A stretch of 22,963 nucleotides of DNA from a virus. Its lineage: Duplodnaviria > Heunggongvirae > Uroviricota > Caudoviricetes. Made by a program: the position numbers. The DNA lies in the IMG/VR virus record IMGVR_UViG_2802429249_000003, positions 1 through 22,963 of that record. One strand, written 5' to 3'. This document shows positions 18,001 to 22,963 of this stretch, piece after piece; within the stretch, counting starts at the first letter, position 1, and every line of letters starts with the position of its first letter.

Positions 18001-21000
18001 TTGAGTGCTTCTATAATCACAGAAGAGATATCGAGATGACTTCTGCATCGTGTAATCGAGCGTTTTTTATCGGGATCGGCATTGACTCTCTTAAAGCAAA
18101 TCGCCGTGCATGGGCAGCATTTATGTTCTGCGAAAGTCAGGCTCATTCACAGATTGAGAGTAAAATACGTGAACGTGTTTTAAAACAAGCCATCGTCGCC
18201 CTTTTTTCGCTCTCAGCAAACCTTTATTCAGCCAGTTCGTCCACCACGTGCCAATCACGGACATTGTTAATTTACCATTACACAGATCACCCGATGGGGA
18301 TTAGACTAGTAAAGAGCATCACAATAATGCTTTACTAATGTTACCGCATGTTGCGGGTGTCATGTATTAGTGAGGGAATATGTCAGGAATTGAAGTGGAA
18401 ATCGCACCACCTGCAAATTGGCAGGATTTTGAACGGCTCACTCTTGATTATGCGAAAAAGCAATGGAAAGACGAATATGCACAAAGGCATGGGCGTCAAG
18501 GCCAAGCCCAGTCTGGAGTTGATATCTATGGCACCCATAGCATCTCGCATGAATTAATAGGCATTCAGTGTAAGAAAAAAAAACACTTCGAAGTTCCGTC
18601 TAAACAACTAACTATTGCAGAAATTGATGTAGAAATAGACGCAGCAAAAACATTCTCTCCAAGATTAGATCATTTCATCATAGCGACAACCGGACCCAGG
18701 GATGCAGATTTACAGGGACATATTCGTATGCAAAACCAGGCAGGTCTGCCTTTTAAGGTATCTCTATTGTTTTGGGAGGACTACCAGGAGTTTCTTAACG
18801 AGCATGTAGGGTTAATGTATAAATATTATAAGGAGGTTTTAGAGTATCGCAGCAAATACAGTGAACTAGATCATTATCTGCTTCTACTCAGCCAAGCTTT
18901 CGATAGACCTGCGATAAAAACCTCTTTTTATTGTGAAAACCAAGCCAACGACTTTATCAAAGCTATGGCTGACACACAGAATGCCATAGCTACTGGTCGT
19001 TTAGTGGACCGAGCTGGACGTATTATCGATGAATGTAAAGTCCCTAGATCTAAAATCAAAAACCTAACAATAGCAAGTCAGTATCTACAAAAGGCTCGAG
19101 AAATTGCAACAAAGGGTATGGCTGAAGGAGTAATCATTCAGCATCAAAATGTAATAGAAATCAAGTCACATGAAGTGACCGACGAACTTAATCAACTAAG
19201 GCGACAGGCTGTCGAACTTCTTAATAATGAACTTATTAAACGCGACTTGGAAATAGTTCATTTTTGTTAACGTTTAATAGCATAATTGAAAGTCCAAAGT
19301 TGAATTTGACAATATCTTACCATTGATGATTAGATGTTAATTCCAGCCCTCACTATTGAGGGCTGATATACTCAAAATCACTAATATCTCAGGTGATTTG
19401 TGACATGTTCTACGCGGATTAACACAAGGCAATGTTAGTTATGCACCCTCGGCGGATGAAAAATTTCGTACTTCCGCTCCTCGCTCTTAGCAGACTACAT
19501 GATTCTTCAAGCGGTCCGCGTCGTGCCAGATATAGTCATTCACACCCTGAGAATTACATTTTTAAGTGATTCAGGGTATGCGCTTATTGGTTACGAATAT
19601 TATGCTAGAATCATGTGTTATGATGATTGCCGCTTTTCAACAACCCCATCTTCGAGTTGCGAATAATATAGTGATGTCACAGATTAAGGTGAATGTCAGT
19701 TAAAATACATTATGCCCAAAAGGCAGAGACTGGAACTAGGTACACGATGATTAACGCACGGAACATTTTTTAATGCACGCGAATGCGATAAAAATTGTGA
19801 GCTTCTGCTCTTCGATGACTTTACAGGCATACAATTTTGTTAATTAGTAACATAAGCGAAGATTACTAAAATTACTGCATGCTAATCAATAAAGAACAAC
19901 TCAGTACTAACACATGACCGCATTAGCGGACATGTGTTAGAAAAGAATACAACAGATAATTAGATTTTGAATAACTTCAGATCAACATCTAAATGTTAAA
20001 GTAGCATAATAAATATATCACCTGTTTTTTGGTTCTAAACTTAAACGTTCATTTGACCATATTTCATTATTCAATTTTATCTTAATACCATCTGGAAAAC
20101 ACTTAAATTCATACTTGTCAAATTCTGGCTGTTCAATGTTAGAACGGAAATTGTAAAATGTTTTATTTTTGAGTGCTAAAGATAAGCTTTCAGAGAAATC
20201 AATTTCAATGCCGATTGACTTCAAAAAACCGGTGCTCACATCGTCTAAATCATCAAATAAGCTGTAATACCCTTTAAGATAATGATTTAAATCCGTTTCA
20301 ACTTCAAGTGAGTTAATAGAAATATCTTCGGGATCTTGAATGTAAACCCTTAAGTATTCATCAAAGTAACTTTGACATGCAACTCTTAAAACGGGCTCCT
20401 TCCCACTAATTTTACTTATTACTTTTGTTTGATTTTTTGCTGTTATTTGTGCTGCGTCATCATATTTATTTGATCTTCCTTTTGCTTCAAAAACAACAAA
20501 TTCATGCCTTTTATTTAGACCAATTAAATCTGGTCGAGAACGTGTTGTTTTTCTTGTGGCAATATTTTTATTTACATATGCGACATGCTGTAACCAATGA
20601 ACTCCTAATAATTTACATGCTAATAGTTTAGACATCGTCATCCCTAAAGAAAATGAAACAAATACTTTTTCTGTTGGATCCATTTCTTTGTAAACATTAG
20701 TTTTTTGAAGAGAGTTTGATTCTAATTTCAATGATGTCCAAATTAACATTGCACGATTAATGATTTCATAAGCTGAATATATACCGTGCTTAGTTATGTG
20801 CCGAGTATTTCGTTTGCCAACGGTTATTGCAGCCCAAATAATTTCATGCCAGTCAGTAAACAGGGTATGACTGCCACTTAGTTGCTTTCCATATATTTTC
20901 TTCGGGAAATCATCAGCCATATAATGAATTTCAATCGTTTCCTTCAAAACATCCTCTCCTAATTAAGCTTAGCTTTACGATTAGAATAGCATCACTTAGA

Positions 21001-22963
21001 TTTTAATTTATGCAGTTTTGCCTTCATACGCTAAAAGTGCCGTTATTGGTTTACTACTACTGATTGGAGTTGTAGAACCACCAACATTAAGAACCATGTT
21101 AACTGTAAGAATGATGCTAAAGCTAAACAGCCATCACGAATACATATCCTCATAACTAATTGATAATCATGTTAGTTTTAACCAAATTCTATAAATAGAC
21201 AATGTCTTTGGCAAAAATCAGACTTTCTACGAGAGTCGAGACAGACAAAACTTCCGCTTTTCGCTCATAGTGGCCGATCAGGTCAGGTTTTGTGTGATGC
21301 CTGCGTCAGGTCAAATTTGATTTAAAAGCAGAGTAAAAGGGGCAATGAGCCCCTTTTGTTATCAAAGAATTAAGCTATGAGCTGACTTGTACCGAAGTTA
21401 CGATAACTGTCATTGACATCTTTGCTGTACGTTTTTGCCAGGTAAGCAACCCGTAGCAAGAACTCACAATAATCAGGGCTTAACGTTAACGCATCATACC
21501 GGGTGAACCAAGCGCTGTGATTCTTGGGGAATTGAACTCGACTTGCATAGTAAGGATAATCAAGCCCAATCGCACTGCACCAGGCTTTCTGTATCCGGGT
21601 CCCCATATTATCAGCGTCAGGGTTAGTATAATCTCCCAGATAACCGTAAAAGTCTTTGTTGAACAGTAGAACCAGATGGTAGTGATGATGCTCACTGGTA
21701 TTACGTTCTCTGGTCCAGATATAGCCAAGTGGTGCAGGCTTACCAGCCCGACTTGAGCGTTTATGTTCTTCCCGTAGCTGGCTTTTCAGTGATTCTATAG
21801 CCCGAGTGATGGCTTTCTCATCATCTTTCTGAAAGCAGGTCGGCATATCTGGCTCATTTGGCACATGGGACTGCGCAAATCGAAAATCAGCCCGTAACGT
21901 GAATATCCGTTCATGTTTCTCTGAATAGTTAGATGTCACTTCGAGTGATCTACGGAGCATATAACCTGATATCGGGGAGTCATATTTATCCTTTGCTGTC
22001 TGTTGGAGGAAATCAAACTCTTTTTCAGTAAAATTATACGGTAATTTCATAATATGTATTCACTGGGTAATGGGTAGCCGATAGCTACCCAGATTATTGT
22101 GGGGATGATTTAATAGTGGTTATAGGGGCCCTATTGCAGTAGCTTAACCTTGGCTACTAGTGTTTATGGGTTTGTTTTACATGTATATTTATAACTGGTA
22201 CATGCACTGCAACAGATCGACATATATTACATATACCGACGAATAAAAGCTGAGAATAGCTTTACTCGAAGCAGTTCAAACCACAGCCAGCCAGGGAATC
22301 ACACCAATGCAACTCATTGATAAAGCATAAAAATTACTCTGAAGTTATTCTTCCAGTGGTATACTGCTAAATACACTACCCCCACCCTGATATACTGGTC
22401 TGCCTGACATCATATTGTGTTTTGCATCCAGCACTGAAGGCACCATTTCGAAAGCAAGATATTTGACGTAATGCGTCCCTCTTTCATCCTCCCATAACTG
22501 GATTTTCCCTTCGTCAGAAAGCTGTTCCAATACAGGTACTAGACGCGCTTCTTTTCTGAGGGAACTGGGACCATTCTGCATAATTCCACGCCGGTTAAAA
22601 TCATAGGATCCATTTCTGACAAGATGACTTTCAAACCAATTAAGTAGCATTTCAGTATCGGAAGGCCCCATTACGGCATCCATTTTTACTATAAAATGAT
22701 TAAGGTACCATTCCGATATTAACAGTGCAGACTCCAGTGTTTCTAACGTAATTATGGATGAGTTAGGAGTAATATATACCTGCATCACAGCAGCAATCCT
22801 GGCCGTATGTTCAGTGTACCGTGCTGCCCAGTCGTTATAATGGTACAGTTTTTTTCCAGGCTCCATTAGATATTTTATCTTCTTATCAATATCATATAGA
22901 CGTTTCTTTGTAGTGGCATAGTGAATTTGGCCACCTGAATAGAGGTGATATCATCACCTCATA

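Follow-up and report, generated by a model that had tools for sequence, protein, structure and literature searches.

Shedu SduA (DUF4263) is a single PD-(D/E)xK nuclease gene found in defence islands and prophages, with a variable accessory region. Mrr, a type IV enzyme, adjoins the hsd genes in the immigration control region of Escherichia coli, and PrrC is an ABC-ATPase-like anticodon nuclease that serves as a backup in type I restriction-modification loci. A gene with likeness to SduA, encoding a protein of 309 amino acids (aa), is located in a 22,963-nucleotide (nt) stretch of DNA from a virus of the Caudoviricetes (IMG/VR record IMGVR_UViG_2802429249_000003, positions 1 to 22,963; this whole stretch will be referred to as the window). 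It is an unnamed, putative PD-(D/E)xK nuclease carried as prophage or island cargo among defence genes. The AT-rich islet around it is a discrete portable cassette (19470-21277), bounded by a repeated hairpin element that the first-pass annotation of this DNA did not notice. The protein is read here as a stand-alone endonuclease, carried as accessory cargo under its own promoter and excluding phages or other invading DNA, and we put the chances of this reading at about even.

The nuclease gene and the signals around it are as follows.

20018..20947, minus strand: 309-aa PD-(D/E)xK-like gene, TTG start
20952..20960, minus strand: Shine-Dalgarno sequence AGGAGAGGA, read from the sequence, with a 4-nt spacing to the TTG start
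21043..21153, minus strand: hydrophobic 36-aa open reading frame (ORF) MRICIRDGCLALASFLQLTWFLMLVVLQLQSVVVNQ, between the promoter-like site and the nuclease gene
21186..21214, minus strand: sigma-70-like promoter site (TTGCCA, 17-nt spacer, TAGAAT), from a consensus scan with 10/12 matches
19907..19940, minus strand: strong stem-loop (inverted repeat I6), 77-110 nt past the stop codon

The first-pass annotation had described a single minus-strand gene with a nuclease-like motif (PDLIG...VVFEAKGR), and this ORF is present at 20018..20947. As for the motif, the D...ExK residues are conserved and lie on the expected predicted strands, but no statistically significant fold or sequence match was found for the protein. 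Among 138 family representatives, which are 25-42% identical to the window protein apart from one at 60%, residues G44, E93, K94, H121 and E154 are invariant. D90, P139, D140, K156, G157, R158, K171, Q173, D205, P206, Y227, Y228, D286, G287 and W297 are at least 90% conserved in the same alignment. The catalytic-type residues are E93, D140, E154, K156 and Q173. In the AlphaFold model (predicted local distance difference test score 90.6, predicted template modelling score 0.92), E93 is located on helix 91-114, D140 begins strand 141-145, E154-A-K156 is on strand 150-157, and K171 and Q173 are on helix 164-174. The core of PD-(D/E)xK enzymes has an α-β-β-β-α-β order with the same placement of residues, an acidic residue on the first helix, another on the second strand, and (D/E)xK on the third strand. 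With this conservation of the motif and this placement of its residues in the model, the protein is therefore treated here as a PD-(D/E)xK nuclease. The assignment is well supported on the grounds of motif and predicted topology and is not proven by fold statistics.

The family is large and without a name. No match was found in Pfam, PADLOC, NCBIfam, PHROGs or the PDB sequences, either with the single sequence or with a 41-sequence profile; the sole hit in PHROGs has an expectation (E) value of 0.039 over 15 residues. A word-indexed search of 5.8 billion proteins finds 49 relatives, all labelled "hypothetical", and an exhaustive profile search of 1.84 billion representatives (at 50% identity) finds 2,096 family members at E ≤1e-3 and 771 at E ≤1e-30. 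Almost all of these representatives have lengths of 300-350 aa. A scan of one genome per species gives 95 relatives, from Proteobacteria, Acidobacteria, Planctomycetes, Bacteroidetes, Firmicutes, Actinobacteria and one archaeal metagenome-assembled genome. No description of the family was found in the literature, searched by accession and with moron and cassette terms.

Both ends of the protein lack known relatives. The N-terminal 85 residues contain the very conserved motif W-x4-W-AAITVGK, and the C-terminal segment has 100 residues. Only the first ~200-250 residues align in many distant relatives, and the C-terminal part is therefore the variable part of the protein. This variable C-terminal third would be the likeliest determinant of which DNA is cut.

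The nearest structural neighbours of the model, none of them significant, are Cas4, the Hjc resolvases, exonuclease V and lambda-exonuclease-like enzymes. Compared to Cas4 (SSO0001), Hjc, exonuclease V and HamA of the Hachiman system, the 309-aa protein has no Cas4-type four-cysteine cluster, adds a conserved N-terminal helical region (with W33, W38 and AAITVGK) and a variable C-terminal domain of ~100 aa, and matches no Pfam model. In contrast to Hachiman, the gene has no HamB-type helicase partner. These structural neighbours would suit an accessory nuclease of repair, recombination or replication (resolvase-, Cas4- or RecB-like), with which mobile elements process their own DNA, as would the presence of the gene in prophages and islands near integrase and replication genes. 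Such a role is very unlikely in our judgement. The gene has no conserved position in any phage or island backbone and occupies variable cargo slots, with related islands lacking it; no homologue was found in 50,697 deposited phage genomes; and its neighbours are mostly restriction and defence genes rather than recombination modules.

The gene is maintained intact. The ratio of nonsynonymous to synonymous substitution rates (dN/dS) is 0.31 and 0.21 relative to copies at 92% and 94% protein identity, and 0.19 between those copies, and these codon comparisons show purifying selection. The ORF is open in 24 of the 24 contigs read that encode the identical protein and in the relatives at 92-94% identity, so that the interruption in close relatives, which the first-pass annotation had named as evidence against its proposal, is seen in no copy examined. 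Among sister contigs, the 296-aa neighbour and yfjJ are broken in some, with yfjJ truncated or replaced by an insertion sequence (IS). The TTG start is kept in two diverged copies, and the first ATG cannot be the start because conserved residues, for example Y9, precede it. The Shine-Dalgarno sequence is kept in the copy in a lambdoid prophage (locus L002) and has one change in the copy located between IS elements (L092). The promoter-like hexamers are kept as well (TTGCCA/TATAAT in L092, TTACCA/TAGAAA in L002), and a promoter is predicted at this site from its consensus and conservation.

These observations bear on the idea that the gene is a functionless hitch-hiker in this host and that its AT-rich flanks are the decaying remains of earlier insertions. 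There is decay in the surroundings: the IS in the 3′ flank is truncated, neighbouring genes decay in sister contigs, and the DUF3987 gene of the island is truncated (see below). With a dN/dS well below 1, an ORF intact in every copy, and a conserved promoter-like site, Shine-Dalgarno sequence and start codon, this idea is nevertheless extremely unlikely, and a functional accessory nuclease is preferred.

The names attached to the identical protein are "Escherichia sp." and E. marmotae, which suggests cryptic Escherichia lineages. The cluster at ≥90% protein identity covers at least eight genera of Enterobacterales, among them Escherichia, Enterobacter, Cronobacter, Serratia, Yersinia, Morganella and Proteus. 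In megablast searches of E. coli genomes, only an IS remnant of the 3′ flank was matched, and the 309-aa gene was not found.

The 36-aa ORF is a putative coding sequence. Its frame is open in all three diverged copies, and the substitutions among these copies are biased to third codon positions (6/10, 5/10 and 7/14). The ORF could be an unrecognised partner of the nuclease. As it follows the conserved promoter-like site and precedes the nuclease gene, both would be co-transcribed, and the two could form a toxin-antitoxin or abortive-infection module, in which one neutralises the other or in which the peptide is a membrane effector. The three copies with the open frame are ~10% diverged. However, the ORF is not preceded by a Shine-Dalgarno sequence, and the bias in codon positions is based on just 10-14 substitutions. 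No equivalent ORF is found upstream of more distant homologues (≤60% identity), and in Cedecea the 5′ gap is only 74 nt. The family also has no conserved neighbour. A two-gene module is thus quite unlikely.

The segment that contains the gene differs from its surroundings in composition. The guanine-cytosine (GC) content of 19271-21369 is 0.344, as compared to 0.470 in the rest of the contig (binomial z = -11.5), which bears out the earlier description of the region at 19.3-21.3 kb as AT-rich relative to its flanks. In sliding 500-base-pair (bp) windows the GC content is 0.30-0.33 across 19751-21000 and 0.45-0.56 over most of the contig, and the 1.3-kb window with the lowest GC content of the contig falls within this segment. 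The gene itself has a GC content of 0.318, and 0.239 at third codon positions, versus about 0.49-0.55 for backbone genes. It is the sole ORF of at least 60 aa in the segment. The stretches on its two sides, 19271-20017 (747 bp) and 20948-21369 (422 bp), contain none, as had been reported with lengths of about 750 and 420 bp.

The placement of the segment is defined by an island at the ssrA gene, with the following landmarks.

12061-13260: prophage integrase gene
13587-14864: P4-type integrase gene intA, in tandem with the prophage integrase gene
22345-22866, minus strand: fragment of a DUF3987 (primase-like) gene, a 173-aa C-terminal part compared to 502 aa in E. coli 537-20

The left 13 kb of the window is the end of a lambdoid prophage common in E. 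coli. At 13393 begins a match to the ssrA-intA junction of E. coli, where the order is ssrA, intA, variable cargo, a yfjJ-like gene ("inovirus Gp2 family"), a DUF3987 gene and alpA. Between the two integrase genes, only the last ~27 nt of ssrA (13393-13419) are present, and ARAGORN finds no transfer-messenger RNA (tmRNA) gene. This arrangement indicates two tandem occupants of the ssrA site, the lambdoid prophage and the island. In E. coli, the tmRNA locus is a documented hotspot for mobile elements with defence genes (PMC10121019). In a related island of E. coli 537-20, a 157-aa gene is the sole cargo; homology with the window stops at 14821 and restarts at 21376, and therefore all of the DNA between intA and yfjJ is variable cargo. 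The backbone of the island is decaying, as the truncated DUF3987 gene illustrates.

The proposal of the first-pass annotation that this is foreign cargo in an integrase island is thus upheld by the intA-yfjJ position and by the 537-20 island, in which only the 157-aa gene is found there. It is upheld as well by the multi-genus cluster and by two further occurrences of the gene with its flanking DNA (92% DNA identity), one in a lambdoid prophage and one flanked by IS elements. In the prophage (L002) the identity covers 19927-21266 at 92.5%, and between IS elements (L092) it covers 19473-21286 at 92.3%. About 1.3-1.8 kb around the gene therefore recurs in two unrelated mobile contexts, and from these spans ~320 bp on the 5′ side of the gene travel with it.

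On the 3′ side, the stem-loop at 19907-19940 has a folding energy of -25.6 kcal/mol (z = -7.3 relative to shuffled sequences) and no canonical U-tract. It is probably the terminator of the 309-aa gene. The L002 sequence diverges inside this stem-loop, which is the 3′ border of the shared segment in that prophage.

A 21-nt direct repeat (19470-19490 and 21250-21270) brackets the unit, where none is expected by chance. The repeat is part of a hairpin element with two types, H1 and H2, and the copies in the window, together with an IS remnant that interrupts one of them, are listed here.

19470..19496, plus strand: H1-type hairpin ACTTCCGCTCCTCGCTCTTAGCAGAC, the cassette border on the 3′ side of the gene (model E = 1.8e-9)
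21249..21277, plus strand: degenerate H1-type hairpin, the cassette border on the 5′ side of the gene (model R1 E = 3.4e-8)
18204..18224, plus strand: degenerate H1-type hairpin between the 932-aa and 296-aa cargo genes (model R1 E = 0.0057)
14969..14992, plus strand: degenerate H2-type hairpin, the left border of the cassette of the 932-aa gene
19514..19530, plus strand: GTCCGCGTCGTGCCAG, the first half of an H2-type hairpin into which an IS110-family element has inserted, as seen from intact H2 copies and the L089 junctions
19531..19638, plus strand: non-coding left-end remnant (~108 nt) of an ISEsa2-like IS of the IS110 family

H1 (AAYKTCCGCTYYTCGCTCATAGCGGAC) has the stem GTCCGCT/AGCGGAC and the loop YYTCGCTCAT. 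It is often followed by H2 (GTCCGCTNTGTGCCAGRAGCGGAC), which has the same stem and the loop NTGTGCCAGR. A model of H1 (R1) built from 59 independent copies, none of them from the window, gives exactly three significant hits in the 22.9-kb window, each of them within the cargo region and on the plus strand. The H2 core TGTGCCAGRAGCRGAC (14977-14992) has one match in the window at one mismatch, versus 0.03 expected, and homology with an E. coli prophage locus (L091) begins at 14969. The homology with L092 ends at both copies of the direct repeat; at the right-hand side, the ends are at 21266 for L002 and 21286 for L092. In L092 itself there are three copies in one orientation (1220-1240, 2526-2546 and 4295-4315), which separate an EcsC gene from the nuclease gene. 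The cargo from intA to yfjJ is thus read as a row of three cassettes, with directly oriented copies of the hairpin element between them.

A degenerate repeat pattern finds the element in 77 stretches of viral contigs, and the sequence CNGAC, which is outside the search pattern, follows 54 of the 73 unique copies. Nearly all copies (77/80) are intergenic, with neighbours that include lambda P, N peptide and CI-type repressor genes, STAND and AAA NTPases, a HEPN protein and integrases. The element is present in 693 of 5,426 complete E. coli genomes and is never annotated. In the E. coli loci L177 (6004-6067) and L178 (4827-4848, 6001-6022 and 10214-10235) it separates single cargo genes in one orientation. 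It matches no Rfam family, and no description of it was found in the literature, searched with ISEsa2, cassette, hairpin and moron terms. By inspection, the 21-nt repeat does not fit the inverted repeats of the Tn3 family, dif sites or repetitive extragenic palindromic (REP) elements. Some copies have a lambda boxA-like sequence, CGCTCTTA, but their orientation relative to the gene is unsuitable for a nut site.

The segment 19514-19638 is 85-95% identical to unannotated DNA on 650 enterobacterial plasmids and in 32 E. coli records. On a Klebsiella pneumoniae plasmid (L089), the matching segment is located directly upstream of an IS110-like transposase gene of the ISEsa2 family. The complete IS there (5017-6510, ~1.49 kb) has both junctions, GTCCGCT AAGAGCGAG, then the IS, then AGCGGAC, and it lies inside the loop of a reversed H1. 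From these junctions, the first 16-17 nt of the segment belong to the target hairpin, of which they form one half, and the IS itself begins at ATATAGTCATTC. An earlier assignment of the whole 125-bp plasmid-like segment to the left end of the IS, with a variable 11-mer as the guide of a bridge RNA, was rejected on the basis of the same junctions. With the insertion in the H1 loop of L089 and the remnant in the window located behind GTCCGCGTCGTGCCAG, this IS110-family member therefore has the hairpin element as one of its insertion sites. No transposase ORF follows the remnant in the window, which thus does not contain a full IS110 element.

IS110-family elements carry a bridge RNA in their non-coding end (PMC11208160). 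With only ~108 nt left, the remnant in the window is decayed IS DNA rather than a regulatory RNA of the 309-aa gene. The flanks had been suggested to contain regulatory RNAs or decayed genes. The remnant at 19531-19638 agrees with the part on decay, but no known RNA family is matched: comparison of the flanks with Rfam gives nothing at the gathering thresholds and chance-level hits only at E ≤10.

The arrangement resembles integron cassettes in that single-gene cargo is separated by a hairpin site repeated in one orientation. There are clear differences, however. The site is a 27-nt hairpin, often with a 24-nt hairpin of the same stem, and is not attC. The window has no IntI-type gene, its two integrases being prophage-type and P4-type, and it does not qualify as an integron. 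A single kind of recombinase was seen near the hairpin element, in three loci: a tyrosine recombinase of 200 aa (for example WP_023147793.1) with the Phage_integrase catalytic domain and no other domain. It is found beside hairpin-bounded cargo in L177 (7610-8212) and L178 (8046-8648), and a degraded copy of its gene is located just upstream of the nuclease cassette in L002 (9136-9623, minus strand). No 200-aa tyrosine recombinase was found at the viral-contig loci. The element is also like the structured repeats at which IS110 elements insert, with an IS110-family insertion precisely in the hairpin loop; REP elements are targets of an IS110-family member, IS621 (PMC11208160).

The hairpin may have a role in the movement of cassettes, by site-specific or short-homology recombination, or may be a mere marker of old junctions. 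The 200-aa recombinase might be its partner. A more far-reaching proposal is that the element is the recombination site of an undescribed platform for cassette exchange among lambdoid prophages, ssrA islands and IS-rich regions of Enterobacterales, with the 309-aa protein as one of its cassettes and as the founder of a new defence family of single-gene nucleases. This proposal in full is rather unlikely to hold.

The gene neighbourhoods of the homologues bear on function as well. All-against-all clustering of the neighbours in 88 loci gives no conserved partner gene, as none is found in more than ~12 loci. Genes like hsdS are within 5 kb of the homologue in 12 loci, and in L054 the HsdR, HsdM and HsdS proteins are confirmed by Pfam. 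In five loci from distant lineages (L046, L054, L061, L083 and L086) the start of the homologue and the stop of the preceding gene share an overlap of 1-4 nt. This gene is a type I hsdS in four of the loci and an MmeI-type methyltransferase in L083, which suggests co-translation with restriction-modification genes. Gabija-like GajA/GajB pairs are located directly upstream of homologues, and SNF2 helicase and MmeI-type methyltransferase genes adjoin them. Genes for Mrr_cat, PLD, DruA and STAND NTPase proteins and integrases are other recurring neighbours, with a SIR2 gene in Vibrio and an AriA/OLD-like ATPase gene in L092. Among prophages, the Cedecea homologue is positioned right after the integrase gene of a P2/186-like prophage, starting 74 nt past it, and in a lambdoid prophage a close relative is found past the tail genes, in the accessory region, with an AbiJ-domain gene nearby.

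A RES toxin gene is directly upstream of the homologue on 93 Agrobacterium plasmids. On one of them, pAt12D1 (L099, 4641-6945), a hypothetical gene, a RES-family NAD+ phosphorylase gene and the homologue (27% identity) form a co-directional trio, which is kept on Agrobacterium plasmids (pAt12D1 and 92 others) and Rhizobium plasmids.

As in Mrr, the PD-(D/E)xK gene stands alone, without its own methyltransferase, and type I restriction-modification genes are found next to it time and again. In contrast to Mrr, the 309-aa protein has no match to Mrr_cat, Mrr_N, SRA or another reader or catalytic family. There is no methyltransferase gene in the cassette or among the window ORFs scanned, so the locus does not have the composition of a type II system. 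None is adjacent in the close homologues L002, L003, L005, L006 and L092; the methyltransferase gene of L003 is ~4.5 kb away, in the prophage backbone. A type IV-like or trigger-dependent mode is plausible, given that the cassette has no methyltransferase and that homologues are repeatedly found beside type I restriction-modification genes. That the 309-aa protein itself depends on modification, we purely infer.

The overlap of the homologue start with the hsdS stop would suit a second-line effector coupled to the type I system, as for PrrC. The two differ in fold, and no restriction-modification system is found beside the gene in the window or in its close relatives. The same overlap, in distant lineages, has the appearance of a recruited accessory, and this disfavours a selfish or addictive nuclease that keeps or spreads its own cassette (by homing or by post-segregational killing) rather than protecting the host. 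The cassette also has neither a cognate methyltransferase nor an immunity gene, and its nuclease gene does not lie inside another gene or in an intron. A selfish nuclease is therefore unlikely, and host defence by a stand-alone nuclease is retained as the preferred reading.

Under the preferred reading, the islet is a self-contained "moron" cassette of ~1.8 kb (19470-21277), acquired horizontally. It contains a promoter-like site, a short leader with the 36-aa ORF, one gene for a putative metal-dependent nuclease and a terminator-like hairpin, and occupies the variable intA-yfjJ slot of a satellite-like island at ssrA, together with two more nuclease-like cargo genes. The protein would cut invading DNA and thereby exclude phages or other mobile elements, more probably by modification-dependent (type IV-like) or otherwise trigger-dependent restriction than as a toxin restrained by a partner. 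The cassette moves among prophages, islands and IS-rich regions, and has borders that coincide with a bipartite hairpin element, also a target of an IS110-family IS. Nuclease activity, a defence role and the way in which self DNA is spared are steps that we infer. An abortive-infection role, which the first-pass annotation had suggested from the layout, is speculative, the evidence for it being the defence-gene neighbours and the accessory regions of prophages.

Several observations weigh against this reading. Defence and nuclease activity are predictions for all members of this family. A lone nuclease would have to spare the DNA of its host, and the protein has no modified-DNA reader domain recognisable with Pfam. 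No defence-system model in PADLOC 2023 (PADLOC-DB 2.0) or NCBIfam 2026 (20.0) is matched at E ≤0.1. A tblastn search of 50,697 deposited phage genomes gives no homologue. The evidence from neighbourhoods, guilt by association, is consistent but qualitative and consists of raw counts, and genes of ordinary metabolism, for instance those for aconitase and GDP-mannose dehydratase, are among the neighbours too. The conserved 36-aa ORF upstream, as discussed above, belongs here as well.

The two other cargo genes of the slot are the following.

15134-17932, plus strand: 932-aa protein with a Cap4/LmuA-like nuclease N-terminus, an AAA ATPase domain and a C-terminal SEC-C motif
18380-19270, plus strand: 296-aa protein with a weak Mrr_cat_2 match, a match to phrog_8991 (E = 2e-22) and a D...QxK motif

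In many E. coli, a lambdoid prophage has the 932-aa gene at 93% identity (L091, 6165-8963), as the sole gene between DUF977 and hokD, and this gene is probably another portable defence-type cassette. The 296-aa gene converges on the 309-aa gene, and in the sister contigs L093-L096 it is split into ORFs of 180 aa and 74 aa. Comparison of the 309-aa protein with these two nuclease-like proteins by hhalign gives a probability of less than 1%, with merely the D...(E/Q)xK motifs lined up. In the lambdoid-prophage part of the window, Rfam identifies the sok antitoxin RNA, the C4 antisense RNA and isrK, at 405-578, 5206-5293 and 5318-5394, all on the minus strand.

If the preferred reading is true, this is a compact single-gene nuclease family with ~2,100 clusters at 50% identity in many phyla and no entry in Pfam, NCBIfam or PADLOC. 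It would be a direct candidate for a new defence family and could serve to study how foreign and host DNA are told apart by a nuclease that acts alone. The hairpin element at the cassette borders is the least expected result. It may explain the swapping of moron and defence genes between mobile elements, and would be usable as a landmark for further unknown cargo genes.

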